A DNA stretch of 64,000 nt, taken from positions 20,460,001 to 20,524,000 of the forward strand of contig OZ024765.1 of assembly GCA_964016885.1 (NCBI GenBank), given 5' to 3'. Of the stretch, positions 13,729-64,000 are shown piece after piece; position 1 is the first letter of the stretch; each line of letters opens with the position of its first letter. The translations under genes were made by a program, and so were the position numbers. The stretch comes from Eledone cirrhosa. Taxonomy: Eukaryota. The notes under the pieces were generated by a model. The model searched no databases and was not told the origin of the DNA. It saw nothing but the letters and a program-made list of their open reading frames with translations.

Positions 13729-21255
<7,527 letters not shown>

Positions 21256-21273
21256 ATTAAAATAACAGATTAA

Positions 21274-21680: not shown

Positions 21681-22923
21681 TAGGAGACCGAATGATTCTC
21701 CGCTACAGAGTTAAGAACAAAGTAAATAAATACAATACAGAAGTAATAGGAACAAATAAATACATACACGCAAACAGATACGTACATACACAAGCATACG
21801 CAAAACCTTACCATGGGTATACAAAACCACGCACATATAAATATGTGTGTGTATGCTTGTGTACAAATAAATAAATAATTATATAAACGTATATAAGTAA
21901 ATAAATACGTATATAACAAGCGCACACGCATACCTACATATAAATACACGAATGTTCGGAGACGTCAGTCAACTAAAACAAGAAGTACACATATACACAC
22001 ACCCACCATACGTACGAACCTGCACACTCACGCGGACGCCAAACTCCCGTATACACATAGCCAAACCCTAAATACCAGAATATGTAAAAATGATACGCTA
22101 TAACAGTCAAATATACGTACGAGAAGGTATACATACCTTCACAAAACATACGGGTAATATATACTTACCTATGCAAATACGTAAAGGAATAAACAAAACA
22201 TATACTTAGCTCCCACATCAAGACGTAAAATATCCACGTATAGATCGTGCTATCCGTTAGGGTATAACGGGGCTGTAATACAGGAAAGTTTTGTGCAATT
22301 TATGTTTACAAGCCGAAATTGCCTCAGATTTTTTGTTTAAGATGTAGTCTGTAGCGTAGAGTATTTCCAGGGCCTCAGCGGCGCAGAGGTCACATGGTCT
22401 TTTATTTCCGTTATACGATCTAGCCCTAGCTAGGATCTCCCAGTGTAACTTATATTGGGTGTGGTTGTCTTTTAGACTCCAGATATAAGCTGAAAGTGAC
22501 GTCATATTCCTTCTTAGAGGGTAACGAAAAGAATGGGTATGCATGTAAAGACGCTGCTTGAAACTATTGGCGGTTAACCCTATGTAGGCCCTACGGGACG
22601 TGGGTGTTACAACCTTACATTTGTAGACAATGTTACTAGAGAGGCATTTCCCGGATAGGGGGCAATCAGCCCGATTCCTACAATTACAGTTAGCACTACC
22701 TACAGGATTGCACGTGTTCCTACGGCTAGGTAGTTTAGCTAAATTTGAAGCTGTGATGTTATGTGCAAGGTTAGGAGTCGTAGAGTAAGAAATTTTAATA
22801 GTATTTCTATTAAAAATTTTACTATATTTATGTGTAGGGGGAAATGCTTCGTAATAAGGGAAAGAAAGATCTTAGCTAATTTAATATTTATAAAGTTACT
22901 TTTTTATTTTTGTTTTATACTAT

Positions 22924-23012
22924 AAAAAATATAATACGACACACTGCCAGTGATTGAACCCCGGACCTGGACTTCCACCGGCTCTTATACATACCACTAG
23001 GCTAAAGGAACG
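22924..23012 (-). ncRNA. Pol III-type tRNA-like module M1 (in every unit)
   Basis: A box TAGCCTAGTGG (23004-22994), B box GGTTCAATCAC (22960-22950), T6 terminator, upstream TTTATAAATA. Confidence 0.55.
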
Positions 23013-23060
23013 GTTACGGAAACTTACTGAAAATTGATATTTATAAACCTACTTTTTCAT

Positions 23061-23235
23061 TACTAGAAAAAACCGGAAGTGGAGAAAATTGAAAAACATC
23101 TTCTTTTTCTTCCTCTGATTTTTTTTTATCCAAAATTTGGATTTAAGTCAGAGACGAGTTATCGTTCGTGGCAAAAATCAGAGGAAGAAAAAGAAAAAGT
23201 TTTTCAATTTTCTCCACTTCCGGTTTTTTCTAGTA
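23061..23235. other. Long inverted repeat/hairpin (~63-bp arms) with branched loop (in every unit)
   Basis: tactagaaaaaaccggaagtggagaaaattgaaaaac..tctttttcttcctctgattttt / aaaaatcagaggaagaaaaaga..gtttttcaattttctccacttccggttttttctagta. Confidence 0.92.
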
Positions 23236-23275
23236 TAGGTAAGTAAATATTAATTTTCAATGCATTTTTGTAACC

Positions 23276-23348
23276 GTCCCTGTGGCCTAATGGTAAGCAC
23301 TAGAGACGGTGGAGATCCTGATTTAGGGTTCGATTTCCGTTAGGTTTT
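23276..23348 (+). ncRNA. Pol III-type tRNA-like module M2 (in every unit)
   Basis: A box TGGCCTAATGG (23283), B box GGTTCGATTTCC (23327), TTTT at 23345. Confidence 0.6.
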
Positions 23349-23631
23349 ATACTAATAATGCTGTACTTTGTAGTAATGTCCCATATTATATTCAACATAT
23401 TTTAATTAAAATTTTTTTTTTTATAAAAGAAAGAACAAAAAAACCTTATTGAAATTAAGAAATGAATTTTATTCAGTAAAGTTGTTTTTATTTTGTTTTC
23501 ACTTCATTAACTGCTGAATACGTCTTTTGTTTTTGTTTTTGATTCTTTCTAACCATTGTTTACTGTGAATGGTGACTGCAACGAACCTGGATTATTACCA
23601 AGTTTCACTGGATGATTGTATTATTTTGTTG

Positions 23632-23703
23632 TCAGTGGACATCTGGACATCTATCTAAATACCTGGAATAAACACAAGGTGTGTGTTTTACGTAACATTT
23701 CAT
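23632..23703 (-). CDS. Candidate micro-ORF or terminal exon A: MKCYVKHTPCVYSRYLDRCPDVH*
   Basis: Paralogous to 25511-25573; followed by AATAAA signals at ~23487 and ~23468; possible acceptor TTTATTCCAG|G at 23663. Confidence 0.35.
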   Translation of the reverse strand: MKCYVKHTPCVYSRYLDRCPDVH

Positions 23704-24037
23704 TTTAATGTCTGATGTTCCTGTATTTCACATTTAAAATGTCACCAAAAATAAACAAGACAGGGACGCTACATCAAAATAAACCACACAGACGAGGTAC
23801 GAATAATCTAAAATTAATTTTAACAAACTATAAACGATGTTTAAAGAGAGACGAACATTAAAATAGGATTTCAAACAAACACGTAAACACAAAGACAATT
23901 ACAGCCGCCATAATCTAATATCTGAAGATCAACATTTTTCACGATAGAAATAAAACTAAATATGTAAAGTTTAGTGGCCCCTGATTTACTTGCTTTTAAT
24001 TTCATTTTGATAATCTGTATTCTGTAGACATATATTT

Positions 24038-24700
24038 ATGATTTTAATGATGAAATTTCCTCTTGTCTTTAAAAGATTATTACTTATAAAAATTATAATA
24101 GTCACCTCCTCCTCTGGATTAATATGTAGCTTACCCACAGGGGTTCCTCAACTGGGCGGTTTCAACTGCTGGGTGGGCGATGAGCAGCTGAACAGAAAAT
24201 TGAGAGCCATTGGAAACTTTGGTGGCCGATATAGAATTTTGAGATTTAAGAAGGTATGCTACCCGAAAACCTATTCAAGGAATATATGCAAAGAACCTGA
24301 ATAAAAATCAGGAAGCTAATTGGGAAAATTAAACCAGGAACAAACATTTACGAAACATATTTGGTATACTTTGGAATATTTACTATACAGGTGGCTGGTG
24401 GAACATTCTTTCATGTGAATGTGGGAAATGACGCCAAAATATTTGGCAACCCTTGGCTTACACCTTACTAAATGTTCTGGAGACAAGCCTCTTAGCTATA
24501 TATCATAGTTCTTCAATCCTTCATCTTCCACAGTTGGTGAAGTATTTCGATTTGATATGACGATCGCAGAGTTAGATTTAGGACGTGGTGGCGTTCATCG
24601 GTTTCTTAGTGTTGTTACTAGAAAGGGTCGACTCTGTCTTTCACACTTCAGGTTTTTTCATGAATTAAATATCCATTTTCTTTCTGATCGGTCTAACAAT
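24038..24700 (+). pseudogene. Decayed non-LTR RT fragment, R1/Loa-like (in every unit)
   Basis: SSRLIYSIIRGSLPTGVPQLGG (long allele) resembles the RT motif 'LSSRxIxxx..IRxxVTRGxPQGG'; downstream similarity is weak and frameshifted. Confidence 0.5.
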
Positions 24701-24834
24701 GATTCGAACCTACAATGACTCCGTCTGTAATAATGTTCTCTTATTTGAAATATGCCATACCTAACTCCAGTGTCTGTGTGTGTGAAAAATATTCCAACTT
24801 AGAGCGACGTGCCCGTAAATTGTTTAGCCTGATT

Positions 24835-24845
24835 CCTATATATAG
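24835..24845 (-). promoter_or_regulatory. Candidate TATA box of cassette A
   Basis: TATATATAGG ~80 nt upstream of AG|GTATGG donor (24760), with TTGTAG acceptor at 24710. Confidence 0.35.
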
Positions 24846-25109
24846 ATAATGTGTAATATTTGAACCTTCATGGAGGGTCTTTGCCGTAATTTCCCGTAAC
24901 TCCGACTAGAAGTCATTATGTAGTTTTTTCGTCCGTTAAAAATAATGATTAAAACAATTCTATATCCACAGTTATATACACCTCTTCATCACATATTATA
25001 TTATTTCCACCAATAACTACATTATATCCTTAAATATGACACCAAGACATATAATTTGTAAATAAAAGATAAAATATTAAAACCTCAATTTTTAAATAAT
25101 TTTACCCAC

Positions 25110-25250
25110 CTTTGTGTTCTCAGTGTTTAGATTAACCATAATTTTATGATTTTGGAGCATATAACTTATAGTACCAGTCATGTACTGGGATCAATTTAAC
25201 GGATTGGTTCCTCCCCGCAAATTACTTGACTTTTGCCTAAGTAAGACATA
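25110..25250 (+). mobile_element. Decayed SINE of the 7607 family (in every unit)
   Basis: tagtaccagtcatgtactgggatcaatttaacggattggttcctccccgcaaattacttgacttttgcctaag aligns by eye with the SINE 3' part at 7487-7593. Confidence 0.65.
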
Positions 25251-25510
25251 CTCACAGAATGTATCGATGTATATGTATGAATCTATATATATATATATAT
25301 TAGTATATTTTATGTTTACAATAAAAATAGACAAACAATTTAATGATAATATGAAATGAAATTATTATTATTTATTAATAATATTTTTATTGTTTTCACT
25401 GCATTAACTTCTGAGTGTGACTTACTATTTTCTACTGTAAATGGCGGCTTAATTGGATTATTACTAAGGTTTACTGGATTGTGGTGTTTCTTTATTGTTT
25501 TATATTTCAA

Positions 25511-25573
25511 TCAGTGGACATCAGGATAGCTTTCTATATACCTGGGATAAATGTAAAGAGTACTGACTTTCAT
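25511..25573 (-). CDS. Candidate micro-ORF or terminal exon B: MKVSTLYIYPRYIESYPDVH*
   Basis: Paralogous to 23632-23703; acceptor-like TTTATCCCAG|G at 25542; AATAAA downstream at ~25386 and ~25371. Confidence 0.35.
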   Translation of the reverse strand: MKVSTLYIYPRYIESYPDVH

Positions 25574-25794
25574 CTGCAGTTCAATGGTGATGTCTTCTTA
25601 TATTTTCATTTACTTCTGCAATACTGTAGTCTTTCATTATTTTAAATATTTCTATCATGTCACTCGTTTAATATATCTCCCCGAAAGATATAGTTATTCA
25701 GAGCTTTACATTGGAATAGTGTACTACTATTTAAATATTAGTCCTTTAAATATATATTTCTATCATGTCCTACCCCCCCCCCCCCCCCCCCGTC

Positions 25795-26400
25795 TTAGAT
25801 TTATCTCCTCTAAATTTGCAATCCCTAAAGTTTAACATCTTTCTTCAGAAGACGATTTCTTAATAATTCTGGTGTTTTCTGTTTTGTTCTTTTCTGGATT
25901 CCTTCAATAGCTTCTCCGTATTTTCTGAAGTCGTCTGACCATGCCCAAAACAATATTCTAGGTCGTATCACACATATCATTCAACTAGTGTTTTAGACCT
26001 CTCGACATTTAGCTAGGCAAAGGAATGTTTTATTATTCCTATCATCTGAATTCCTTTTTTTTCTTCAACATGTTTAGCCATCTTTAAAATCATATTCATA
26101 CATATTCACAATTCCTCGTGGAGAGGTATAAGAGACATGTATAAATATAGCTGCATATTACTACAAATAACTTGAACCATATCGCGAAACATTTTGTAAA
26201 GTATCTCTGTAATTATTCTCATTTCGATTTTCTGTAGAATGTATTGACGTTTAAGATAGAGACAATTGCCCTTCTTCTAATAATCTCTTTGTCCATTGCA
26301 TGTTTAGTCTCACAAAATATTGTTAATGCAAGATTTTGCTCTAATGTAATAAATGTTACTTTTAAAAGACCGAAGTTCTCAATTTTCTTCTTTCTCTTGT
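25795..26400 (-). pseudogene. Decayed, internally deleted CR1/L2-type LINE ORF2 fragment (in every unit)
   Basis: Minus-strand pieces across frameshifts and copies: RAKSCINNIL / EWTKRLLEEG / KMAKHVEE / QMIGIIKHSFA / LEYCFGAWSDDFRKYGEAIEGIQKRTKQKTPELLRNLSSEERC*TLGIANLE. These parallel the CR1 'LEYCSSVWSP..KKDIDAIEKVQRRATK..LRNLSYEERL..LGL.SLE' region. Confidence 0.8.
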
Positions 26401-26526
26401 ATATTGATATCTAAAGGATGACAAATGTATGAATTATGTGATAGGGAGGAAAAAAGCCACGACCTTCTTCTCTCGTTACAGAAGGCTAACTGACAACGTC
26501 TTTCGCAGGAGTGACTAGTACTACTG

Positions 26527-26539
26527 CCTTTTATATACC
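26527..26539 (-). promoter_or_regulatory. Candidate TATA box of cassette B
   Basis: Canonical TATATAAAAGG ~70 nt upstream of AAG|GTCGTG donor (26463), with CCTTTAG acceptor at 26411. Confidence 0.45.
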
Positions 26540-27181
26540 GTGACAACTGGAAAGACGTGACAAATAAGGATACACTCTGCTCTCCTTATCAACATTGTCC
26601 GAGTCTGAGGACCTTTCCTCCCTGGTTAAGGAGTGAGATAAAATATTAGGGATCAATCTCTAGCAATAATTTCATTAAATCATATTTAACCAGAGACTTA
26701 TGTCGTGGTTGTTGCTATATTTCATAGTCGTGGTTTCAATGTTTAACAGGGGTTGTAGAATTAGCTTTATCTAATTATTATCAAACAAAACAGATTTATA
26801 TATTGTCGCCGTTGTACGTTAAAATCACATATATATTTATATACACACCAAGGATGGAGGGACGACGGAATTGAAAAGCATTATTGCTGAGTACATCACG
26901 GCAAGAATCTAATCTAATACACACAAACACTCTCCCGTATATATTTAATAATCAGCTATGACCATGAAGAAGGTCCCTGTAGATCATCTGGTTGTAGGAT
27001 CTAATGAACCCGAAAGAAAGTGAAAATATATTTTATGAAAGCCCCAGAAGAATAAATGTAAACATTGACCCGATTATAGTAGAAATAAGAATGAGAAAGC
27101 CATGAACGCCAGCACATCTATTTTGCTTGGAAATTGAAAGTAGGTTTATAAATATAAATGTTTTCTTATGTTCTTGTATCT

Positions 27182-27269
27182 GTTTCGTTGGCCTAATGGT
27201 AGGTGTTAGAGACTATGTAGACACTGATGTGGTGTTCAATCTCAGTCCGAATCTGTACTATATATTTTT
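27182..27269 (+). ncRNA. Pol III-type tRNA-like module M3 (in every unit)
   Basis: Upstream AGTAGGTTTATAAATAT, A box TGGCCTAATGG (27189), B-like GTGTTCAATCTC, T5 at 27265. Confidence 0.5.
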
Positions 27270-27295
27270 AAATTAAAATTTTTCTCTAGTAAAGT

Positions 27296-27390
27296 AAAAA
27301 ATGAAATTATTATCTCTAGACTTTGACTGAAATCGAAACCCAGAGCAGGTTCTCCACCGTCTCTAATACCTACCATTAGGCCACGGAGAC
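27296..27390 (-). ncRNA. Pol III-type tRNA-like module M4 (in complete units)
   Basis: A box TGGCCTAATGG (27383-27373), B-like GGTTTCGATTTC, T6 terminator, upstream AGTAACTTTATAAATAT. Confidence 0.5.
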
Positions 27391-30300
27391 AGATATAAAG
27401 ACAGTGTGAAAATTAATATTTATAAAGTTACTTTTTTAGTTTTGTTTTATACTATAAAAAATATAATACGACACACTGCCAGTGATTGAACCTTGGACCT
27501 GGACCTTCACCGGCTCTTATACTTACCACTAGGCTAAAGGGACAGTTACGGAAACTTACTGAAAATTGATATTTATAAACCTACTTTTTCATTACTAGAA
27601 AAAACCGGAAGTGGAGAAAATTGAAAAACATCTTCTTTTTCTTCCTCTGATTTTTTTTTATCCAAAATTTGGATTTAAGTCAGAGACGAGTTATCGTTCG
27701 TGGCAAAAATCAGAGGAAGAAAAAGAAAAAGTTTTTCAATTTTCTCCACTTCCGGTTTTTTCTAGTATAGGTAAGTAAATATTAATTTTCAATGCATTTT
27801 TCTAACCGTCCCTGTGGCCTAATGGTTAGCACTAGAGACGGTGGAGATCCTGATTTAGGGTTCGATGTCCGTTAGGTTTTATACTAATAACTGCGTATTT
27901 GTTGCTTTTATTAAGTAAGATTTGAACTAATAATGCTGTACTTTGTAGTAATGTCCCATATTATATTCAACATATTTTAATAAAAAATTTTTTTTTTTAT
28001 AAAAGAAAGAACAAAAAACCTTATTGAAATTAAGAAATGAATTTTATTCAGTAAAGTTGTTTTTATTTTGTTTTCACTTCATTAACTGCTGAATACGTCT
28101 TTTGTTTTTGTTTTTGATTCTTTCTAACCATTGTTTACTGTGAATGGTGACTGCAACGAACCTGGATTATTACCAAGTTTCACTGGATGATTGTATTATT
28201 TTGTTGTCAGTGGACATCTGGACATCTATCTAAATACCTGGAATAAACACAAGGTGTGTGTTTTACGTAACATTTCATTTTAATGTCTGATGTTACTGTA
28301 TTTCACATTTAAAATGTAACCAAAAATAAACAAGACATGGACGCTACATCAAAATAAACCACACAGACGAGGTACGAATAATCTAAAATTAATTTTAACA
28401 AACTATAAACGATGTTTAAAGAGAGACGAACATTAAAATAGGATTTCAAACAAACACGTAAACACAAAGACAATTACAGCCGCCATAATCTAATATCTGA
28501 AGATCAACATTTTTCACGATAGAAATAAAACTAAATATGTAAAGTTTAGTGGCCCCTAATTTACTTGCTTTTAATTTCATTTTGATAATCTGTATTCTGT
28601 TGACATATATTTATGATTTTAATGATAAAATTTCCTCATGTCTTTAAAAGATTATTACTTATAAAAATTATAATAGTCACCTCCTCCTCTGGATTAATAT
28701 GTAGCTTACCCACAGGGGTTCCTCAACTGGGCGGTTTCAACTGTTGGGTGGGCGATGAGCAGCTGAACAGAAAATTGAGGGCCATTGGAAACTTTGGTGG
28801 CCGATATAGAATTTTGAGATTTAAAAAGGTATGCTACCCGAAAACCTATTCAAGGAATATATGCAAAGAACCTGAATAAAAATCAGGAAGCTAATTGGGA
28901 AAATTAAACCAGGAACAAACATTTACGAAACATATTTGGTATACTTTGGAATATTTACTATACAAGTGGCTGGTGGAACATTCTTTCATGTGAATGTGGG
29001 AAATGACGCCAAAATATTTGGCAACCCTTGGCTTACACCTTACTAAATGTTCTGGAGACAAGCCTCTTAGCTATATATCATAGTTCTTCAATTCTTCATC
29101 TTCCACAGTTGGTGAAATATTTCGATTTGATATGACGATCGCAGAGTTAGATTTAGGACGTGGTGGCGTTCATCGGTTTCTTAGTGTTGTTACTAGAAAG
29201 GGTCGACTCTGTCTTTCACACTTCAGGTTTTTTCATGAATTAAATATCCATTTTCTTTCTGATCGGTCTAACAATGATTTGAACCTACAATGACTCCGTC
29301 TGTAATAATGTTCTCTTATTTGAAATATGCCATACCTAACTCCCGTGTCTGTGTGTGTGAAAAATATTCCAACTTAGAGCGACGTGCCCGTAAATTGTTT
29401 AGCCTGATTCCTATATATAGATAATGTGTAATATTTGAACCTTCATGGAGGGTCTTTGCCGTAATTTCCCGTAACTCCGACTAGAAGTCATTATGTAGTT
29501 TTTTCGTCCGTTAAAAATAATGATTAAAACAATTCTATATCCACAGTTATATACACCTCTTCATCACATATTATATTATTTCCACCAATAACTACATTAT
29601 ATCCTTAAATATGACACCAAGACATATAATTTGTAAATAAAAGATAAAATATTAAAACCTCAATTTTTAAATAATTTTACCCCACCTTTGTGTTCAGGTT
29701 AACCCATAATTTTATGATTTTGGAGCATATAACTTATCGTCCCAGTCATGTACTGGGATCAATTTAACGGATTGGTTCCTCCCCGCAAATTACTTGACTT
29801 TTGCCTAAGTAAGACATACTCACAGAATGTATCGATGTACATGTATGAATGTATATATATATATATATATTAGTATATTTTATGTTTACAATAAAAATAG
29901 ACAAACAATTTAATGATAATATGAAATGAAATTATTATTATTTATTAATAATATTTTTATTGTTTTCACTGCATTAACTTCTGAGTGCGACTTTGTTTTT
30001 CTTATTATCTTCTACTGTAAATGGCGGCTTAATTGGATTATTACTAAGGTTTACTGGATTGTGGTGTTTCTTTATTGTTTTATATTTCAATCAGTGGACA
30101 TCAGGATAGCTTTCTATATACCTGGGATAAATGTAAATAGTACTGACTTTCATCTGCAGTTCAATGGTGATGTCTTCTTATATTTTCATTTACTTCTGCA
30201 ATACTGTATATTGTAGTCTTTTCATTATTTTAAATATTTCTATCATGTCACTCGTTTGATATATCTCCCCGAAAGATATAGTTATTCAGAGCTTTACATT

Positions 30301-31497
30301 GGAATAGTGTACTACTATTTAAATATTAGTCCTTTAAATATATATTTCTATCATGTACACCCCCCCCCCCTCTTAGATTTATCTCCTCTAAATTTGCAAT
30401 CCCTAAAGTTTAACATCTTTCTTCAGAAGACAGATTTCTTAATGATTCTGGTGTTTTCTGTTTTGTTCTTTTCTGGATTCCTTTAATAGCTTCTCCGTAT
30501 TTTTTGAAGTCGTCTGACCATGCCCCAAAACAATATTCTAGGTCGTATCACACATATCATTCAACTAGTGTTTTAGACCTCTCGACATTTAGCTAGGCAA
30601 AGGAATGTTTTATTATTCCTATCATCTGAATTCCTTTTTTTTCTTCAACATGTTTAGCCATCTTTAAAATCATATTCATACATATTCACAATTCCTCGTG
30701 GAGGGGTATAAGAGACATGTATAAATATAGCTGCATATTACTACAAAATAACTTGAACCGTATCGCGAAACATTTTGTAAAGTATCTCTGTAATTATTCT
30801 CATTTCGATTTTCTGTAGAATGTATTGACGTTTAAGATAGAGACAATTGCCCTTCTGCTAATAATCTCTTTGTCCATTCCATGTTTAGTCTCACAAAATA
30901 TTGTTAATGTAAGATTTTGCTCTAATGTAATAAATGTTACTTTTAAAAGACCGAAGTTCTCAATTTTCTTCTTTCTCTTGTATATTGATATCTAAAGGAT
31001 GACAAATGTATGAATTATGTTATAGGGAGGGAAAAAAAGCCACGACCTTCTTCTCTCGTTACAGAAGGCTAACTGACAACGTCTTTCGCAGGAGTGACTA
31101 GTACTACTGCCTTTTATATACCGTGACAACTGGAAAGACGTGACAAATAAGGATACACTCTGCTCTCCTTATCAACATTGTCCGAGTCTGAGGACCTTTC
31201 CTCCCTGGTTAAGGAGTGAGATAAAATATTAGGGATCAATCTCTAGCAATAATTTCATTAAATCATATTTAACCAGAGACTGTTATGTCGTGGTTGTTGC
31301 TATATTTTATAGTCGTGGTTTCAATGTTTAACAGGGGTTGTAGAATTAGCTTTATCTAATTATTATCAAACAAAACAGATTTATATATTGTCGCCGTTGT
31401 ACGTTAAAATCACATATATATTTATATACACACCAAGGATGGAGGGACGACGGAATTGAAAACGATTATTGCTGAGTACATCACGGCAAGATCTAAT

Positions 31498-31528
<31 letters not shown>

Positions 31529-34500
31529 CCCGTATATATTTAATAATCAGCTATGACCATGAAGAAGGTCCCTGTAGATCATCTGGTTGTAGGATCTAAT
31601 GAACCCGAAAGAAAGTGAAAATATATTTTATGAAAGCCCCAGAAGAATAAATGTAAACATTGACCCGATTATAGTAGAAATAAGAATGAGAAAGCCATGA
31701 ACGCCAGCACATCTATTTTGCTTGGAAACTGAAAGTAGGTTTATAAATATAAATTTTTTCTTATGTTCTTGTATCTGTTTCGTTGGCCTAATGGTAGGTG
31801 TTAGAGACTATGTAGACACTGATGTGGTGTTCAATCTCAGTCCGAATCTGCACTATATATTTTTAAATTAAAATTTGTCTCTAGTAAATTAAAAAATGAA
31901 ATTATTATCTATAGACTTTGACTAAAATCGAAACCCAGAGCAGGTTCTCCACCGTCTCTAATACCTACCATTAGGCCACGGAGACAGATACAAAAACAGT
32001 GTGAAAATTAATATTTATAAAGTTACTTTTTTATTTTTGTTTTATACTATAAAAACTATAATACGACACACTGCCAGTGATCGAACCCTGGACCTGGACC
32101 TCCACCAGCTCTTATACTTACCACTAGGCTAAAGGGACGGTTACGGAAACTTACTGAAAATTGATATTTATAAACCTACTTTTTCATTACTAGAAAAAAC
32201 CGGAAGTGGAGAAAATTGAAAAACATCTTCTTTTTCTTCCTCTGATTTTTTTTTATCCAAAATTTGGATTTAAGTCAGAGACGAGTTATCGTTCGTGGCA
32301 AAAATCAGAGGAAGAAAAAGAAAAAGTTTTTTAATTTTCTCCACTTCCGGTATTTTCTAGTATAGGTAAGTAAATATTAATTTTCAATGCATTTTTCTAA
32401 CCGTCCCTGTGGCCTAATGGTAAGCACTAGAGACGGTGGAGATCCTGATTTAGGGTTCGATTTCCGTTAGGTTTTATACTAATAACTGCGTATTTGTTGC
32501 TTTTATTAAGTAAGATTTGAACTAATAATGCTGTACTTTGTAGTAATGTCCCATATTATATTCAACATATTTTAAATAAAACTTTTTTTTTTTATAAAAG
32601 AAAGAACAAAAAACCTTATTGAAATTAAGAAATGAATTTTATTCAGTAAAGTTGTTTTTATTTTGTTTTCACTTCATTAACTGCTGAATACGTCTTTTGT
32701 TTTTGTTTTTGATTCTTTCTAACCATTGTTTACTGTGAATGGTGACTGCAACGAACCTGGATTATTACCAAGTTTCACTGGATGATTGTATTATTTTGTT
32801 GTCAGTGGACATCTGGACATCTATCTAAATACCTGGAATAAACACAAGGTGTGTGTTTTACGTAACATTTCATTTTAATGTCTGATGTTCCTGTATTTCA
32901 CATTTAAAATGTAACCAAAAATAAACAAGACAGGGACGCTACATCAAAATAAACCACACAGACGAGGTACGAATAATCTAAAATTAATTTTAACAAACTA
33001 TAAACGATGTTTAAAGAGAGACGAACATTAAAATAGGATTTCAAACAAACACGTAAACACAAAGACAATTACAGCCGCCATAATCTAATATCTGAAGATC
33101 AACATTTTTCACGATAGAAATAAAACTAAATATGTAAAGTTTAGTGGCCCCTAATTTACTTGCTTTTAATTTCATTTTGATAATCTGTATTCTGTTGACA
33201 TATATTTATGATTTTAATGATAAAATTTCCTCATGTCTTTAAAAGATTATTACTTATAAAAATTATAATAGTCACCTCCTCCTCTGGATTAATATGTAGC
33301 TTACCCACAGGGGTTCCTCAACTGGGCGGTTTCAACTGTTGGGTGGGCGATGAGCAGCTGAACAGAAAATTGAGGGCCATTGGAAACTTTGGTGGCCGAT
33401 ATAGAATGTTGGGATTTAAGAAGGTATGCTACCCGAAAACCTATTCAAGGAATATATGCAAAGAACCTGAATAAAAATCAGGAAGCTAATTGGGAAAATT
33501 AAACCAGGAACAAACATTTACGAAACATATTTGGTATACTTTGGAATATTTACTATACAGGTGGCTGGTGGAACATTTTTTCATGTGAATGTGGGAAATG
33601 ACGCCAAAATATTTGGCAACCCTTGGCTTACACCTTACTAAATGTTCTGGAGACAAGCCTCTTAGCTATATATCATAGTTCTTCAATCCTTCATCTTCCA
33701 CAGTTGGTGAAGTATTTCGATTTGATATGACGATCGCAGAGTTAGATTTAGGACGTGGTGGCGTTCATGGGTTTCTTAGTGTTGTTACTAGAAAGGGTCG
33801 ACTCTGTCTTTCACACTTCAGGTTTTTTTCATGAATTAAATATCCATTTTCTTTCTGATCGGTCTAACAATGATTCGAACCTACAATGACTCCGTCTGTA
33901 ATAATGTTCTCGTATTTGAAATATGTCATACCTAACTCCCGTGTCTGTGTGTGTGAAAAATATTCCAACTTAGAGCGACGTGCCCGTAAATTGTTTAGCC
34001 TGATTCCTATATATAGATAATGTGTAATATTTGAACCTTCATGGAGGGTCTTTGCCGTAATTTCCCGTAACTCCGACTAGAAGTCATTATGTAGTTTTTT
34101 CATCCGTTAAAAATAATGATTAAAACAATTCTATATCCACAGTTATATACACCTCTTCATCACATATTATATTATTTCCACCAATAACTACATTATATCC
34201 TTAAATATGACACCAAGACATATAATTTGTAAATAAAAGATAAAATATTAAAACCTCAATTTTTAAATAATTTTACCCCACCTTTGTGTTCTCAGTGTTT
34301 AGATTAACCCATAATTTTATGATTTTGGAGCATATAACTTATAGTACCAGTCATGTACTGGGATCAATTTAACGGATTGGTTCCTCCCCGCAAATTACTT
34401 GACTTTTGCCTAAGTAAGACATACTCACAGAATGTATCGATGTACATGTATGAATGTATAGATATATATATATATTAGTAATTTTATGTTTACAATAAAA

Positions 34501-37500
34501 ATAGACAAACAATTTAATGATAATATGAAATGAAATTATTATTATTTATTAATAATATTTTTATTGTTTTCACTGCATTAACTTCTGAGTGCGACTTTGT
34601 TTTTCTTATTATCTTCTACTGTAAATGGCGGCTTAATTGGATTATTACTAAGGTTTACTGGATTGTGGTGTTTCTTTATTGTTTTATATTTCAATCAGTG
34701 GACATCAGGATAGCTTTCTATATACCTGGGATAAATGTAAATAGTACTGACTTTCATCTGCAGTTCAATGGTGATGTCTTCTTATATTTTCATTTACTTC
34801 TGCAATACTGTATATTGTAGTCTTTTCATTATTTTAAATATTTCTATCATGTCACTCGTTTGATATATCTCCCCGAAAGATATAGTTATTCAGAGCTTTA
34901 CATTGGAATAGTGTACTACTATTTAAATATTAGTCCTTTAAATATATATTTCTATCATGTCCCCCCCCCCCACCCTCTTAGATTTATCTCCTCTAAATTT
35001 GCAATCCCTAAAGTTTAACATCTTTCTTCAGAAGACGATTTCTTAATAATTCTGGTGTTTTCTGTTTTGTTCTTTTCTGGATTCCTTCAATAGCTTCTCC
35101 GTATTTTCTGAAGTCGTCTGACCATGCCCCAAAACAATATTCTAGGTCGTATCACATATCATTCAACTAGTGTTTTAGACCTCTCGACATTTAGCTAGGC
35201 AAAGGAATGTATTATTATTCCTATCATCTGAATTCCTTTTTTCTCTTCATGTTTAGCCATCTTTAAAATCATATTCATACATATTCACAATTCCTCGTGG
35301 AGGGGTATAAGAGACATGTATAAATATAGCTGCATATTACTACAAAATAACTTGAACCATATCGCGAAACATTTTGTAAATTATCTCTGTAATTATTCTC
35401 ATTTCGATTTTCTGTAGAATGTATTGACGTTTAAGATAGAGACAATTGCCCTTCTAATAATCTCTTTGTCCATTCCATGTTTAGTCTCACAAAATATTGT
35501 TAATGCAAGATTTTGTTCTAATGTAATAAATGTTACTTTTAAAAGACCGAAGTTCTCAATTTTCTTCTTTCTCTTGTATACTGATATCTAAAGGATGACA
35601 AATGTATGAATTATGTGATAGGGAGGAAAAAAGCCACGACCTTCTTCTCTCGTTACAGAAGGCTAACTGACAACGTCTTTCGCAGGAGTGACTCGTACTA
35701 CTGCCTTTTATATATCGTGACAACTGGAAAGACGTGACAAATAAGGATACACTCTGCTCTCCTTATTAACATTGTCCGAGTCTGAGGACCTTTCCTCCCT
35801 GGTTAAGGAGTGAGATAAAATATTAGGGATCAATCTCTAGCAATAATTTCATTAAATCATATTTAACCAGAGACTGTTATGTCGTGGTTGTTGCTATATT
35901 TTATAGTCGTGGTTTCAATGTTTAACAGGGGTTGTAGAATTAGCTTTATCTACTTATTATCAAACAAAACAGATTTATATATTGTCGCCGTTGTACGTTA
36001 AAATCACATATATATTTACATACACACCAAGGATGGAGGGACGACGGAATTGAAAAGCATTATTGCTGAGTACATCACGGCAAGATCTAATACACACACA
36101 CACACACACTCTCCCGTATATATTTAATAATCAGCTATGACCATGAAGAAGGTCCCTGTAGATCATCTGGTTGTAGGATCTAATGAACCCGAAAGAAAGT
36201 GAAAATATATTTTATGAAAGCCCCAGAAGAATAAATGTAAACATTGACCCGATTATAGTAGAAATAAGAATGAGAAAGCCATGAACGCCAGCACATCTAT
36301 TTTGCTTGGAAATTGAAAGTAGGTTTATAAATATAAATGTTTTCTTATGTTCTTGTATCTGTTTGGTAGGTGTTAGAGACTATGTAGACACTGATATGGT
36401 GTTCAATCTCAGTCGGAATCTGTACTATATATTTTTAAATTTAAATTTTTCTCTAGTAAAGTAAAAAATGAAATTATTATCTATAGACTTTGACTGAAAT
36501 CGAAACCCAGAGCAGGTTCTCCACCGTCTCTAATACCTACCATTAGGCCACGGAGACAGATATAAAAACAGTGTGAAAATTAATATTTATAAAGTTACTT
36601 TTTTATTTTATACCATAAAAGATATAATACGACACACTGCCAGTGATTGAACCCCGGACCTGGACCTCCACCGGCTCTTATACTTACCACTAGGCTAAAG
36701 GGACAGTTACGGAAACTTATTGAAAATTGATATTTATAAACCTACTTTTTCATTACTAGAAAAAACCGGAAGTGGAGAAAATTGAAAAACATCTTCTTTT
36801 TCTTCCTCTGATTTTTTTTTATCCAAAATTTGGATTTAAGTCAGAGACGAGTTATCGTTCGTGGCAAAAATCAGAGGAAGAAAAAGAAAAAGTTTTTCAA
36901 TTTTCTCCACTTCCGGTTTTTTCTAGTATAGGTAAGTAAATATTAATTTTCAATGCATTTTTCTAACCGTCCCTGTGGCCTAATGGTAAGCACTAGAGAC
37001 GGTGGAGATCCTGATTTAGGGTTCGATTTCCGTTAGGTTTTATACTAATAACTGCGTATTTGTTGCTTTTATTAAGTAAGATTTGAACTAATAATGCTGT
37101 ACTTTGTAGTAATGTCCCATATTATATTCAACATATTTTAATTAAAATTTTTTTTTTTTATAAAAGAAAGAACAAAAAACCTTATTGAAATTAAGAAATG
37201 AATTTTATTCAGTAAAGTTGTTTTTATTTTGTTTTCACTTCATTAACTCCTGAATACGTCTTTTGTTTTTGTTTTTGATTCTTTCTAACCATTGTTTACT
37301 GTGAATGGTGACTGCAACGAACCTGGATTATTACCAAGTTTCACTGGATGATTGTATTATTTTGTTGTCAGTGGACATCTGGACATCTATCTAAATACCT
37401 GGAATAAACACAAGGTGTGTGTTTTACGTAACATTTCATTTTAATGTCTGATGTTCCTGTATTTCACTTTTAAAATGTAACCAAAAATAAACAAGACAGG

Positions 37501-40500
37501 GACGCTACATCAAAATAAACCACACAGACGAGGTACGAATAATCTAAAATTAATTTTAACAAACTATAAACGATGTTTAAAAAGAGACGAACATTAAAAT
37601 AGGATTTCAAACAAACACGTAAACACAAAGACAATTACAGCCGCCATAATCTAATATCTGAAGATCAACATTTTTCACGATAGAAATAAAACTAAATATG
37701 TAAACTTTAGTGGCCCCTGATTTACTTGCTTTTAATTTCATTTTGATAATCTATATTCTGTAGACATATATTTATGATTTTAATGATGAAATTTCCTCTT
37801 GTCTTTAAAAGATTATTACTTATAAAAATTATAATAGTCACCTCCTCCTCTCGATTAATATATAGCATCATTCGAGGTAGCTTACCCACAGGGGTTCCTC
37901 AACTGGGCGGTTTCAACTGTTGGGTGGGCGATGAGCAGCTGAACAGAAAATTGAGGGCCATTGGAAACTTTGGTGGCCGATATAGAATTTTGAGATTTAA
38001 GAAGGTATGCTACTCGAAAACCTATTCAAGGAATATATGCAAAGAACCTGAATAAAAATCAGGAAGCTAATTGGGAAAATTAAACCAGGAACAAACATTT
38101 ACGAAACATATTTGGTATACTTTGGAATATTTACTATACAGGTGGCTGGTGGAACATTTTTTCATGTGAATGTGGGAAATGACGCCAAAATATTTGGCAA
38201 CCCTTGGCCTACACCTTACTAAATGTTCTGGAGACAAGCCTCTTAGCTATATATCATAGTTCTTCAATCCTTCATCTTCCACAGTTGGTGAAGTATTTCG
38301 ATTTGATATGACGATCGCAGAGTTAGATTTAGGACGTGGTGGCGTTCATGGGTTTCTTAGTGTTGTTACTAGAAAGGGTCAACTCTGTCTTTCACACTTC
38401 AGGTTTTTTCATGAATTAAATATCGATTTTCTTTCTGATCGGTCTAACAATGATTTGAACCTACAATGACTCCGTCTGTAATAATGTTCTCTTATTTGAA
38501 ATATGCCATACCTAACTCCCGTGTCTGTGTGTGTGAAAAATATTCCAACTTAGAGCGACGTGCCCGTAAATTGTTTAGCCTGATTCCTATATATATAGAT
38601 AATGTGTAATATTTGAACCTTCATGGAGGGTCTTTGCCGTAATTTCCCGTAACTCCGACTAGAAGTCATTATGTAGTTTTTTCGTCCGTTAAAAATAATG
38701 ATTAAAACAATTCTATATCCACAGTTATATACACCTCTTCATCACATATTATATTATTTCCACCAATAACTACATTATATCCTTAAATATGACACCAAGA
38801 CATATAATTTGTAAATAAAAGATAAAATATTAAAACCTCAATTTTTAAATAATTTTACCCCACCTTTGTGTTCAGGTTAACCCATAATTTTATGATTTTG
38901 GAGCATATAACTTATAGTACCAGTCATGTACTGGGATCAATTTAACGGATTGGTTCCTCCCCGCAAATTACTTGACTTTTGCCTAAGTAAGACATACTCA
39001 CAGAATGTATCGATGTATATGTATGAATCTATATATATATATATATTAGTATATTTTATGTTTACAATAAAAATCGACAAACAATTTAATGATAATATGG
39101 AATGAAATTATTATTTATTAATAATATTTTTATTGTTTTCACTGCATTAACTTCTGAGTGTGACTTTGTTTTTCTTACTATTTTCTACTGTAAATGGCGG
39201 CTTAATTGGATTATTACTAAGGTTTACTGGATTGTGGTGTTTCTTTATTGTTTTATATTTCAATCAGTGGACATCAGGATAGCTTTCTATATACCTGGGA
39301 TAAATGTAAAGGGTACTGACTTTCATCTGCAGTTCAATGGTGATGTCTTCTTATATTTTCATTTACTTCTGCAATACTGTATATTGTAGTCTTTTCATTA
39401 TTTTAAATATTTCTATCATGTCACTCGTTTGATATATCTCCCCGAAAGATATAGTTATTCAGAGCTTTACATTGGAATAGTGTACTACTATTTAAATATT
39501 AGTCCTTTAAATATATATTTCTATCATGTCCCCCACCCCCACCCCCACTTAGATCTATCTCCTCTAAATTTGCAATCCCTAAAGTTTAACATCTTTCTTC
39601 AGAAGACGATTTCTTAATAATTCTGGTGTTTTCTGTTTTGTTCTTTTCTGGATTCCTTCAATAGCTTCTCCGTATTTTCTGAAGTCGTCTGACCATGCCC
39701 CAAAACAATATTCTAGGTCGTATCACACATATCATTCAACTAGTGTTTTAGACCTCTCGACATTTAGCTAGGCAAAGGAATGTTTTATTATTCCTATCAT
39801 CTGAATTCCTTTTTTTTCTTCAACATGTTTAGCCATCTTTAAAATCATATTCATACATATTCACAATTCCTCGTGGAGGGGTATAAGAGACATGTATAAA
39901 TATAGCTGCATATTACTACAAAATAACTTAAACCATATCGCGAAACATTTTGTAAAGTATCTCTGTAATTATTCTCATTTCGATTTTCTGTAGAATGTAT
40001 TGACGTTTAAGATAGAGACAATTGCCCTTCTTCTAATAATCTCTTTGTTCATTCCATGTTTAGTCTCACAAAATATTGTTAATGCAAGATTTTGCTCTAA
40101 TGTAATAAATGTTACTTTTAAAAGACCGAAGTTCTCAATTTTCTTCTTTCTCTTGTATATTGATATCTAAAGGATGACAAATGTATGAATTATGTGATAG
40201 GGAGGAAAAAAGCCACGACCTTCTTCTCTCGTTACAGAAGGCTAACTGACAACGTCTTTCGCAGGAGTGACTAGTACTACTGCCTTTTATATACCGTGAC
40301 AACTGGAAAGACGTGACAAATAAGGATACACTCTGCTCTCCTTATCAACATTGTCCGAGTCTGAGGACCTTTCCTCCCTGGTTAAGGAGTGAGATAAAAT
40401 ATTAGGGATCAATCTCTAGCAATAATTTCATTAAATCATATTTAACCAGAGACTTATGTCGTGGTTGTTGCTATATTTCATAGTCGTGGTTTCAATGTTT

Positions 40501-43500
40501 AACAGGGGTTGTAGAATTAGCTTTATCTAATTATTATCAAACAAAACAGATTTATATATTGTCGCCGTTGTACGTTAAAATCACATATATATTTATATAC
40601 ACACCAAGGATGGAGGGACGACGGAATTGAAAACCATTATTGCTGAGTACATCACGGCAAGAATCTAATCTAATACACACACACACTCTCCCGTATATAT
40701 TTAATAATCAGCTATGACCATGAAGAAGGTCCCTGTAGATCATCTGGTTGTAGGATCTAATGAACCCGAAAGAAAGTGAAAATATATTTTATGAAAGCCC
40801 CAGAAGAATAAATGTAAACATTGACCCGATTATAGTAGAAATAAGAATGAGAAAGCCATGAACGCCAGCACATCTATTTTGCTTGGAAATTGAAAGTAGG
40901 TTTATAAATATAAATGTTTTCTTATGTTCATGTATCTGTTTCGTTGGCCTAATGGTAGGTGTTAGAGACTATGTAGACACTGATGTGGTGTTCAATCTCA
41001 GTCCGAATCTGTACTATATATTTTTAAATTTAAATTTTTCTCTAGTAAAGTAAAAAATGAAATTATTATCTATAGACTTTGACTGAAATCGAAACCCAGA
41101 GCAGGTTCTCCACCGTCTCTAATAGGCCACGGAGACAGATATAAAGACAGTGTGAAAATTAATATTTATAAAGTTACTTTTTTAGTTTTGTTTTATACTA
41201 TAAAAAATATAATACGACACACTGCCAGTGATTGAACCCCGGACCTGGACCTCCACCGGTTCTTATACTTACCACTAGGCTAAAGGGACGGTTACGGAAA
41301 CTTACTGAAAATTGATATTTATAAACTTACTTTTTCATTACTAGAAAAAACCGGAAGTGGAGAAAATTGAAAAACATCTTCTTTTTCTTCCTCTGATTTC
41401 TTTTTATCCAAAATTTGGATTTAAGTCAGAGACGAGTTATCGTTCGTGGCAAAAATCAGAGGAAGAAAAAGAAAAAGTTTTTCAATTTTCTCCACTTCCG
41501 GTTTTTTCTAGTATAGGTAAGTAAATATTAATTTTCAATGCATTTTTGTAACCGTCCCTGTGGCCTAATGGTTAGCGCTAGAGACGGTGGAGATCCTGAT
41601 TTAGGGTTCGATGTCCTTTAGGTTTTATACTAATAACTGCGTATTTGTTGCTTTTATTAAGCAAGATTTGAACTAATAATGCTGTACTTTGTAGTAATGT
41701 ACCATATTATATTCAACATATTTTAATTAAAATTTTTTTTTTTATAAAAGAAAGAACAAAAAACCTTATTGAAATTAAGAAATGAATTTTATTCAGTAAA
41801 GTTGTTTTTATTTTGTTTTCACTTCATTAACTGCTGAATACGTCTTTTGTTTTTGTTTTTGATTCTTTCTAACCATTGTTTACTGTGAATGGTGACTGCA
41901 ACGAACCTGGATTATTACCAAGTTTCACTGGATGATTGTATTATTTTGTTGTCAGTGGACATCTGGACATCTATCTAAATACCTGGAATAAACACAAGGT
42001 GTGTGTTTTACGTAACATTTCATTTTAATGTCTGATGTTCCTGTATTTCACATTTAAAATGTAACCAAAAATAAACAAGACAGGGACGCTACATCAAAAT
42101 AAACCACACAGACGAGGTACGAATAATCTAAAATTAATTTTAACAAACTATAAACGATGTTTAAAGAGAGACGAACATTAAAATAGGATTTCAAACAAAC
42201 ACGTAAACACAAAGACAATTACAGCCGCCATAATCTAATATCTGAAGATCAACATTTTTCACGATAGAAATAAAACTAAATATGTAAAGTTTAGTGGCCC
42301 CTGATTTACTTGCTTTTAATTTCATTTTGATAATCTGTATTCTGTAGACATATATTTATGATTTTAATGATGAAATTTCCTCTTGTCTTTAAAAGATTAT
42401 TGCTTATAAAAATTAAAATAGTCACCTCCTCCTCTCGATTAATATGTAGCTTACCCACAGGGGTTCCTCAACTGGGCGGTTTCAACTGTTGGGTGGGCGA
42501 TGAGCAGCTGAACAGAAAATTGAGGGCCATTGGAAACTTTGGTGGCCGATATAGAATGTTGAGATTTAAGAAGGTATGCTACCCGAAAACCTATTCAAGG
42601 AATATATGCAAAGAACCTGAATAAAAATCAGGAAGCTAATTGGGAAAATTAAACCAGGAACAAACATTTACGAAACATATTTGGTATACTTTGGAATATT
42701 TACTATACAGGTGGCTGGTGGAACATTTTTTCATGTGAATGTGGGAAATGACGCCAAAATATTTGGCAACCCTTGGCTTACACCTTACTAAATGTTCTGG
42801 AGACAAGCCTCTTAGCTATATATCATAGTTCTTCAATCCTTCATCTTCCACAGTTGGTGAAGTATTTCGATTTGATATGACGATCGCAGAGTTAGATTTA
42901 GGACGTGGTGGCGTTCATGGGTTTCTTAGTGTTGTTACTAGAAAGGGTCGACTCTGTCTTTCACACTTCAGGTTTTTTTCATGAATTAAATATCCATTTT
43001 CTTTCTGATCGGTCTAACAATGATTCGAACCTACAATGACTCCGTCTGTAATAATGTTCTCGTATTTGAAATATGTCATACCTAACTCCCGTGTCTGTGT
43101 GTGTGAAAAATATTCCAACTTAGAGCGACATGCCCGTAAATTGTTTAGCCTGATTCCTATATATAGATAATGTGTAATATTTGAACCTTCATGGAGGGTC
43201 TTTGCCCTAATTTCCCGTAACTCCGACTAGAAGTCATTATGTAGTTTTTTCGTCCGTTAAAAATAATGATTAAAACAATTCTATATCCACAGTTATATAC
43301 ACCTCTTCATCACATATTATATTATTTCCACCAATAACTACATTATATCCTTAAATATGACACCAAGACATATAATTTGTAAATAAAAGATAAAATATTA
43401 AAACCTCAATTTTTAAATAATTTTACCCCACCTTTGTGTTCTCAGTGTTTAGATTAACCCATAATTTTATGATTTTGGAGCATATAACTTATAGTACCAG

Positions 43501-46500
43501 TCATGTACTGAGATCAATTTAACGGATTGGTTCCTCCCCGCAAATTACTTGACTTTTGCCTAAGTAAGACATACTCACAGAATGTATCGATGTACATGTA
43601 TGAATGTATATATATATATATATATATTAGTATATTTTATGTTTACAATAAAAATAGACAAACAATTTAATGATAATATGAAATGAAATTATTATTATTT
43701 ATTAATAATATTTTTATTGTTTTCACTGCATTAACTTCTGAGTGCGACTTTGTTTTTCTTACTATTTTCTACTGTAAATGGCGGCTTAATTGGATTATTA
43801 CTAAGGTTTACTGGATTGTGGTGTTTCTTTATTGTTTTATATTTCAATCAGTGGACGTCAGCATAGCTTTCTATATACCTGGGATAAATGTAAAGAGTAC
43901 TGACTTTCATCTGCAGTTCAATGGTGATGTCTTCTTATATTTTCATTTACTTCTGCAATACTGTATATTGTAGTCTTTTCATTATTTTAAATATTTCTAT
44001 CATGTCACTCGTTTGATATATCTCCCCGAAAGATATAGTAACTTCGGAGCTTTACATTGGAATAGTGTACTACTATTTAAATATTAGTCCCTTAAATATA
44101 TATTTCTATCATGCCCCCCCCCCCCCCCCTAGATTTATCTCCTCTAAATTTGCAATCCCTAAAGTTTAACATCTTTCTTCAGAAGACAGATTTCTTAATA
44201 ATTCTGGTGTTTTCTGTTTTGTTCTTTTCTGGATTCCTTCAATAGCTTCTCCGTATTTTCTGAAGTCGTCTGACCATGCCCCAAAACAATATTCTAGGTC
44301 GTATCACACATATCATTCAACTAGTGTTTTAGACCTCTCGACATTTAGCTAGGCAAAGGAATGTTTTATTATTCTTATCATCTGAATTCCTTTTTTTTCT
44401 TCAACATGTTTAGCCGTCTTTAAAATCATATTCATACATATTCACAATTCCTCGTGGAGGGGTATAAGAGACATGTATAAATATAGCTGCATATTACTAC
44501 AAAATAACTTGAACCATATCGCGAAACATTTTGTAAAGTATCTCTGTAATTATTCTCATTTCGATTTTCTGTAGAATGTATTGACGTTTAAGATAGAGAC
44601 AATTGCCCTTCTTCTAATAATCTCTTTGTCCATTCCCTGTTTAGTCTCACAAAATATTGTTAATGCAAGATTTTGCTCTAATGTAATAAATGTTAGTTTT
44701 AAAAGACCGAATTTCTCAATTTTCTTCTTTCTCTTGTATATTGATATCTAAAGGATGACAAATGTATGAATTATGTGATAGGGAGGGAAAAAAAAGCCAC
44801 GACCATCTTCTCTCGTTACAGAAGGCTAACTGACAACGTCTTTCGCAGGAGTGACTAGTACTACTGCCTTTTATATACCGTGACAACTGGAAAGACGTGA
44901 CAAATAAGGATACTCTCTGCTCTCCTTGTCAACATTGTCCGAGTCTGTGGACCTTTCCTCCCTGGTTAAGGAGTGAGATAAAATATTAGGGATCAATCTC
45001 TAGCAATAATTTCATTAAATCATATTTAACCAGAGACTGTTATGTCGTGGTTGTTGCTATATTTTATAGTCGTGGTTTCAATGTTTAACAGGGGTTGTAG
45101 AATTAGCTTTATCTAATTATTATCAAACAAAACAGATTTATATATCGTCGCCGTTGTACGTTAAAATCACATATATATTTATATACACACCAAGGATGGA
45201 GGGACGACGGAATTGAAAACCATTATTGCTGAGTACATCACGGCAAGATCTAATACACACACACACACACACACACTCTCCCGTATATATTTAATAATCA
45301 GCTATGACCATGAAGAAGGTCCCTGTAGATCACCTGGTTGTAGGATCTAATGAACCCGAAAGAAAGTGAAAATATATTTTATGAAAGCCCCAGAAGAATA
45401 AATGTAAACATTGATCCGATTATAGTAGAAATAAGAATGAGAAAGCCATGAACGCCAGCACATCTATTTTGCTTGGAAATTGAAAGTAGGTTTATAAATA
45501 TAAATTTTTTCTTATGTTCTTGTATGTTTCGTTGGCCTAATGGTAGGTGTTAGAGACTATGTAGACACTGATGTGGTGTTCAATCTCAGTCCGAATCTGT
45601 ACTATATATTTTTAAATTTAAATTTTTCTCTAGTAAAGTAAAAAATGAAATTATTATCTATAGACTTTGACTGAAATCGAAACCCAGAGCAGGTTCTCCA
45701 CCGTCTCTAATACCTACCATTAGGCCACGGAGGCAAATATAAAAACAGTGTGAAAATTAATATTTATAAAGTTACTTTTTTATTTTTGTTTTATACTATA
45801 ATAAATATAATACGACACACTGCCAGTGATTGAACCCCGCACCTGGACCTCCACCGGTTCTTATACTTACCACTAGACTAAAGGGACGGTTACGGAAACT
45901 TACTGAAAATTGATATTTATAAACCTACTTTTTCATTACTAGAAAAAACCGGAAGTGGAGAAAATTGAAAAACATCTTCTTTTTCTTCCTCTGATTTTTT
46001 TTTATCCAAAATTTGGATTTAAGTCAGAGACGAGTTATCGTTCGTGGCAAAAATCAGAGGAAGAAAAAGAAAAAGTTTTTCAATTTTCTCCACTTCCGGT
46101 TTTTTCTAGTATAGGTAAGTAAATATTAATTTTCAATGCATTTTTGTAACCGTCCCTGTGGCCTAATGGTAAGCACTAGAGACGGTGGAGATCCTGATTT
46201 AGGGTTCGATTTCCGTTAGGTTTTATACTAATAACTGCGTATTTGTTGCTTTTATTAAGTAAGATTTGAACTAATAATGCTGTACTTTGTAGTAATGTCC
46301 CATATTATATTCAACATATTTTAATTAAAATTTTTTTTTTTTATAAAAGAAAGAACAAAAAACCTTATTGAAATTAAGAAATGAATTTTATTCAGTAAAG
46401 TTGTTTTTATTTTGTTTTCACTTCATTAACTGCTGAATACGTCTTCTGTTTTTGTTTTTTATTCTTTCTAACCATTGTTTACTGTGAATGGTGACTGCAA

Positions 46501-48213: not shown

Positions 48214-48262
<49 letters not shown>

Positions 48263-63200: not shown

Positions 63201-64000
63201 CAACGTCTTTCGCAGGAGTGACTAGTACTACTGCCTTTTATATACTGTGACAACTGGAAAGACGTGACAAATAAGGATACACTCTGCTCTCCTTGTCAAC
63301 ATTGTCCGAGTCTGTGGACCTTTCCTCCCTGGTTAAGGAGTGAGATAAAATATTAGGGATCAATCTCTAGCAATAATTTCATTAAATCATATTTAACCAG
63401 AGACTGTTATGTCGTGGTTGTTGCTATATTTTATAGTCGTGGTTTCAATGTTTAACAGGGGTTGTAGAATTAGCTTTATCTAATTATTATCAAACAAAAC
63501 AGATTTATATATTGTCGCCGTTGTACGTTAAAATCACATATATATTTATATACACACCAAGGATGGAGGGACGACGGAATTGAAAACCATTATTGCCGAG
63601 TACATCACGGCAAGATCTAATACACACACACACACACACTCTCCCGTATATATTTAATAATCAGCTATGACCATGAAGAAGGTCCCTGTAGATCACCTGG
63701 TTGTAGGATCTAATGAACCCGAAAGAACGTGAAAATATATTTTATGAAAGCCCCAGAAGAATAAATGTAAACATTGATCCGATTATAGTAGAAATAAGAA
63801 TGAGAAAGCCATGAACGCCAGCACATCTATTTTGCTTGGAAATTGAAAGTAGGTTTATAAATATAAATTTTTTCTTATGTTCTTGTATCTGTTTCGTTGG
63901 CCTAATGGTAGGTGTTAGAGACTATGTAGACACTGATGTGGTGTTCAATCTCAGTCCGAATCTGTACTATATATTTTTAAATTTAAATTTTTCTCTAGTA

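Follow-up and report, generated by a model that had tools for sequence, protein, structure and literature searches.

Are the four tRNA-like modules that lie side by side in this stretch of DNA (the whole 64,000 nucleotides analysed, hereafter the window) small-RNA genes, the heads of a SINE, or relics of some other element? The initial annotation described them as a cluster of four modules in the order +,-,-,+, and our analysis finds them in that place and order as four paralogues, M1 to M4, with a mean column identity of 74%. Sequence inspection and alignment confirm that each has an A box, a B-box-like motif, and an oligo-T stop. The common 5' flank proposed for them corresponds to an upstream element that all four share, with a TATA-type box that is clear upstream of M1-M3 and altered in M4. 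The modules are therefore real, but the cluster is not a lone one: the block is repeated at intervals of about 4.59 kb, starting at 22.9 kb and continuing through the end of the window. The features, in window coordinates, are the following.

22878..64000, no strand: tandem array in units of 4.53-4.60 kb each with a four-module block, extending a further 36.6 kb or so beyond the window to make about 17 units in all
27096..27118, +: distal motif, common to the first module of many clusters and to both transposon-borne modules; by eye, unlike the motif upstream of U6 genes
27137..27165, +: M1 upstream element (from the alignment); its TATA-type box precedes the inferred start by about 30 nt
27176..27268, +: predicted M1 RNA of about 93 nt, with an A box at 27189-27199, a B box at 27233-27243, and a T-run starting at 27265; its start is inferred from the solo copies described below
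27298..27396, -: predicted M2 RNA of about 99 nt, with an A box at 27373-27383, a B box at 27329-27339, and a T-run extending leftwards from 27301
27407..27434, -: M2 upstream element (from the alignment)
27458..27549, -: predicted M3 RNA of about 92 nt, with an A box at 27526-27536, a B box at 27482-27492, and a T-run extending leftwards from 27461
27560..27587, -: M3 upstream element (from the alignment)
27593..27767, no strand: inverted repeat of 63 bp, 97%, with arms at 27593-27655 and 27705-27767 and a 49-nt spacer, between the divergent M3 and M4
27765..27791, +: M4 upstream element (from the alignment), TATA-type box altered
27802..27909, +: predicted M4 RNA of 79 nt if it stops at the first T-run (27877) or 108 nt if it reaches the second (27906), with an A box at 27815-27825 and a B box at 27859-27869

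The module pattern is not a product of chance, because its degenerate form has 757 exact matches genome-wide and the reversed control has 0. M1 and M2 form a convergent pair, and M3 and M4 a divergent one. The initial annotation had instead placed M3 and M4 in convergence and suggested that read-through between them could form dsRNA, an idea left unsupported because these two modules are divergent. A miRNA hairpin was considered for the inverted repeat between them and rejected, every Rfam match to it lying below the gathering score.

The similarity of the modules points to a tRNA ancestor. M4 can be aligned with the tRNA-Arg(CCG) of this genome without a single gap, 44 of 71 positions being identical, including 17 of the first 18. 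When the comparison set consists of the genome's Ala, Arg-CCG, Asp, Glu, Ile, Thr, and Val tRNA calls, the top score of M1, M2, and M4 is with tRNA-Arg(CCG), and a Glu or Asp tRNA outscores it for M3 and the first transposon-borne module. On this comparison, the family is likely to derive from tRNA-Arg. The modules were rejected as functional tRNA genes: ARAGORN makes 0 tRNA calls within the 64-kb window, Rfam at its gathering score has no match there (the tRNA model RF00005 included), and 16 related loci likewise yield no tRNA calls. In addition, the cloverleaf has been lost, as had been suspected when no canonical one could be built; its pairs are formed in 50.7% of cells (24% in the anticodon stem), which is no better than in slid controls. 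A U6-type (type 3) organization was rejected as well. The proximal motif common to the region 50-70 nt upstream of three U6 genes is, by eye, not seen upstream of the modules, and therefore their promoter is probably type 2 with a TATA-type box.

The eight full units of the window array measure 4,532-4,598 bp and lie 0.8-1.8% apart, the module region being no less variable than the spacer. A 22-mer from the spacer has 186 exact copies in the 3.0-Gb assembly, a copy number taken solely from that assembly, and the patterns for M4 and M3 have 188 and 187 genome matches. The 100 of the 186 spacer matches that were listed make up 10 separate arrays on C20, C22, and C26, with up to about 20 units in an array. 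Eighteen array ends and the left array end of the window fall at scattered positions within the unit, and no terminal repeats were found at these junctions; an array inserted as one transposon or Penelope-type element was rejected on both grounds. Four arrays have one end and its flank in common, therefore indicating segmental duplication, and unequal exchange plus segmental duplication fits the array ends. Three sequencing runs (contigs of one sample) cover all 30 bins of the unit, including the spacer, so they look like DNA and are uninformative on expression or on other species. A protein-coding unit was rejected, since only three stop-free stretches, of 89-98 codons, were present in one unit, and the search for other RNA genes in the spacer returned only two weak matches (E 0.36 and 0.78). 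The unit also contains a relic of a module's far-upstream flank without its gene (window 29157-29259, -) and an internal duplication of 260 bp at 66% identity (27989-28247 and 29878-30131), both pointing to a putative earlier, shorter repeat unit.

We put at roughly 55% the reading in which the modules are a transcribed passenger of this macrosatellite, with no sequence-specific function of the RNA. The evidence for and against it comes from the older clusters, the transposon-borne copies, and the solo copies of the modules.

Several other repeats and frames lie outside the array. A 204-codon GIY-YIG-like frame (window 22257-22871, -) ends 7 bp from the left edge of the array; it has no Pfam match, its Atlas look-alikes are partly GIY-YIG and fall in mollusc-dominated clusters, and we take it to be probably a Penelope-type fragment. 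Further to the left are a 1218-codon open frame of tandem C2H2 zinc fingers (9704-13360, +; 84-bp period, 44 copies), an almost pure AT microsatellite of 7.5 kb (13729-21257), and an 80-bp tandem repeat (2685-6219). Elsewhere in the genome, a tRNA-Glu and tRNA-Asp pair forms a long tandem array with a 1.34-kb period (L134-L148; C3, 277.24-277.39 Mb), U6 genes are tandem too, with a 1.8-kb period (C19, L251-L268), and diverging tRNA-Thr copies, some with altered anticodons, form a dense local cluster at intervals of 150-470 bp (L084 and L086). Tandem arrays of Pol III genes seem common in this genome.

Older clusters, 70-84% identical and made up of two to five modules, were identified on C18, C21, C24, and C26. 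Their spacer is 66-84% identical to that of the unit, and the similarity of the module region does not exceed that of the spacer. At least 40 copies exist of a second cluster type. Altogether the family amounts to roughly a thousand tRNA-like genes. These clusters, together with the tRNA alignment, support the proposal of the initial annotation that the modules are tRNA-like Pol III genes duplicated at the DNA level, without a SINE body or tail. In an alignment of 37 paralogue rows (six transposon copies, three array variants, and one solo among them), conservation reaches 80-90% or more in most columns of the upstream element, a value inflated because the rows were chosen by a profile required to match that element, and it is mostly 30-60% in the stretch between the element and the start and mostly 60-90% in the body. 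The RNA seems less well preserved than the promoter, on which selection is likely.

The same pattern bears on a second reading, that the DNA itself matters, its densely packed TFIIIC/TFIIIB sites serving as chromatin boundaries or nuclear anchors and the RNA being a by-product. We consider it unlikely. The upstream element and boxes do look more conserved than the RNA body, and clusters and arrays (the latter among the matches listed) are concentrated on a few small chromosomes. However, arrays of up to about 20 units with random ends are unlike placed boundaries, and no link to a neighbouring gene family emerged: C2H2 zinc-finger runs occur in 2 of 47 array-edge, cluster, or flank loci and in 0 of 32 controls, so that a link between the arrays and zinc-finger clusters was not found.

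If the modules are instead passengers of repeated DNA, as we prefer, the macrosatellite is not their only vehicle. Among 40 dispersed matches fetched, 22 passed the filter as a convergent pair with its upstream flanks, and this pair is 69% identical to M1-M2, upstream flanks included. Its carrier is a non-autonomous element with 14-bp terminal inverted repeats (14 of 14 positions matching in L081) and 316 exact left ends genome-wide. Of 20 elements picked by their left end, six contain the module pair, and nine have both ends within 5 kb. In these nine, the 8-bp duplication matches at 8/8 positions in two, 7/8 in four, 5/8 in two, and 3/8 in one, where the four 7/8 cases fit 10 bp equally, since they lie in dinucleotide repeats; by eye, L073 and L081 have a target duplication of 8/8. 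No hAT transposase was recognised in the four of the 20 elements whose frames were listed. The carrier appears to be a hAT-like non-autonomous DNA element, a label based on its 14-bp repeats, its apparent 8-bp duplications, and established knowledge of hAT ends. In one such element (L081, 2394-5539), the module pair is present as three 825-bp copies in tandem, which echoes the large arrays on a small scale. A separate set of ten dispersed tRNA-like genes (L085, L087-L095, at 1500-1574) has near-identical flanks of 100 bp upstream and 30 bp downstream and different anticodons (called Ala, Val, Thr, and Asp), and probably represents another mobile element carrying a tRNA-like gene.

The identity of the transposon pair with M1-M2, flanks and all, and the abundance of its carrier would suit a third reading, which we regard as very improbable, in which the hAT-like transposon left the modules behind as inert relics that were swept into the satellite, and the solo copies are fragments of DNA. 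Against it, the array ends lack transposon termini, and the ends of the solos coincide with the predicted start and terminator, with upstream DNA never included. Moreover, most module diversity lies in the clusters, which suggests the opposite direction: in the order of events that we infer, the pair would have been captured from the clusters by the transposon.

The solo copies also speak to transcription. Examination of 84 dispersed loci, duplicates included, gave 55 distinct matches and at least 23 distinct long solos of M1-M4, a count that leaves out transposon copies, other paralogues, and short 3' pieces; 12 of them are of the M2 type. The upstream element is absent from all 23. In 13 of them the copy starts 4-8 nt ahead of tRNA position 1, around a purine that lies some 30 nt below the TATA-type box; two others start at -9 or -11, and eight are 5'-truncated. 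At the 3' side, 14 end at the T-run, six earlier, one between the two T-runs of M4, and two later. Clear target-site duplications are present in only 2-3 of the 23, and many solos lie in dinucleotide repeats that blur their ends. In addition, several solos are joined at the T-run to other repeats (L154, L159, L165, and L163), which we take to be SINE or LINE ends, in part from their recurrence at other loci, and one chimera is flanked by a 14-bp duplication. Reverse transcription of small RNAs with template switches is established for U6 chimeras, and the solos look like retrocopies of this kind. Because they look like retrocopies with ends at the predicted start and stop, the genes were probably transcribed by Pol III in the germline. 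At one further locus on C3 (L044 / L180, positions 590-1110 of L044), five 106-bp copies of the M4 transcript lie head to tail without the upstream element, for which we propose repeated template jumping or the copying of a circularised RNA. The dispersed copies examined are thus transposon-borne pairs with their upstream flanks or solos without a body, and do not look like the heads of a SINE family.

Under the passenger reading, the family would spread at the DNA level, by way of 4.6-kb tandem arrays, older clusters, and the hAT-like transposon, and the unit would be kept by unequal exchange and segmental duplication. TFIIIC would bind the A and B boxes and TFIIIB would sit on the upstream TATA-type element, and transcription would run from a purine some 6 nt ahead of tRNA position 1 to the T-run. 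The expected Pol III products are unprocessed RNAs of 80-110 nt, which without a cloverleaf would retain leader and trailer and whose sequence would drift while the promoter is kept. Germline transcripts would occasionally be reverse-transcribed by retroelement enzymes, giving the bodiless solos and the chimeras.

It is also conceivable, if not what we would expect, that these are functional small RNAs comparable to 4.5SH or snaR, supplied at high dose by the arrays and acting, for example, by pairing with antisense tRNA-derived SINE sequence in introns or by binding a dsRNA-binding protein. The family has persisted through 20-30% divergence with start, boxes, and T-run intact, and a two-hairpin fold forms its pairs in 74% of cells compared with 34-43% when slid. 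Nevertheless, this fold was drawn from the alignment consensus and has no covariation beyond shuffles (214 of 500 reach its score), and the four paralogues differ mutually by about a quarter. The covariation check suggested at the outset gave nothing further, RNAalifold finding no shared base pair among 22 paralogues, and single-sequence folds are not unusually stable (z-scores of -0.3 to -1.5). A conserved fold among the paralogues was therefore not found by single folds, RNAalifold, or the two-hairpin and cloverleaf tests.

The gene layout also argues for a functional RNA, as the rodent 4.5SH RNA genes, in the portions of PMC10137851 available to us, are short type-2 Pol III genes with a TATA-type box near -30 and hundreds of copies in 4-5-kb tandem units. 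The modules resemble them in their A and B boxes, upstream TATA-type box, hundreds of multi-kb tandem units (186 of 4.6 kb), and restriction to a lineage. Unlike 4.5SH, which is of 7SL/B1 origin, they are of apparent tRNA origin, with four diverged paralogues in mixed orientation per unit, many arrays, and a transposon branch. For 4.5SH, moreover, RNA and function have been demonstrated, including a role against B1 exonization (the review PMC11802352, in part), whereas the modules are known from their genes alone. The primate snaR genes are likewise Pol III small-RNA genes with segmental and tandem duplication, conserved flanks, and retrotransposed relatives, but according to the available text of PMC3045588 they are Alu-derived and structured, bind NF90, and have retrotransposed forms that are ancestral; in the present family it is the array genes that gave rise to the solos, and a conserved fold was not found. 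Membership in either family by descent was rejected, there being no Rfam match and the similarity being to tRNA and not to 7SL, Alu, or B1, and we claim no homology with 4.5SH or snaR. The analogy with viral Pol III RNAs drawn in the initial annotation is not needed, since these cellular precedents are closer.

Other comparisons concern tRNA-derived elements. BC1 RNA, related to the ID elements, is produced by a tRNA-derived Pol III gene that serves as the master gene for retrocopies. Rodent 4.5SI RNA also has a tRNA-derived Pol III gene and is not a tRNA (PMC10137851, same portions). In contrast to 4.5SI and BC1, which have one to three genes, about a thousand genes and few retrocopies are found here. 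The SINEBase definition, as given in the excerpt of PMC3531059, asks for at least 60% identity to tRNA over at least 60 nt, an interspersed rather than tandem arrangement, and at least 100 retrocopies, usually with body and tail. The modules fall outside it on two of these three counts: the tRNA identity is reached by M4, the only module for which it was counted (44/71 with tRNA-Arg(CCG)), but most copies lie in tandem arrays or clusters, and there are at least 23 distinct long solos with no shared body or tail. The family also appears distinct from a set of octopus repeats, by their description rather than by consensus sequence, as it lacks a body, a tail, and very many interspersed copies. 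These are the octopus SINEs OK, OR1, and OR2, reportedly described by Ohshima and Okada in 1994, of which OR1 and OR2 are said to be of tRNA-Arg origin; like the modules, they are tRNA-derived and probably come from the same animal group. Helenus, Ajax, and Cassandra are, like the carrier, non-autonomous mobile elements with small-RNA-derived Pol III sequences, but these are LTR retroelements in the available part of PMC10886601, and the carrier has 14-bp terminal inverted repeats and apparent 8-bp duplications. A description of the module family, or of a DNA transposon carrying such genes, was not found in searches of the openly accessible literature, and the consulted portions of PMC4233971, PMC10886601, and PMC4758252 do not describe the family.

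Lineage-specific Pol III RNAs encoded in arrays have been described mainly in rodents and apes, and an invertebrate counterpart apparently derived from tRNA, with exact predicted ends, is testable. It is important to note that 4.5SH was long without a known function before one was found. A bolder and quite tentative extension is that a cephalopod-type genome independently evolved a 4.5SH-like system from tRNA, with about a thousand Pol III genes, diverged paralogue types, macrosatellites, export by a transposon, retrocopies, and functional RNAs that might, for example, control tRNA-derived SINE sequences in transcripts. The family presents three routes of spreading side by side, namely tandem arrays, a DNA transposon, and apparent retrocopies with fused tails, and it may offer a rare look at the stage that is believed to give rise to simple SINEs.
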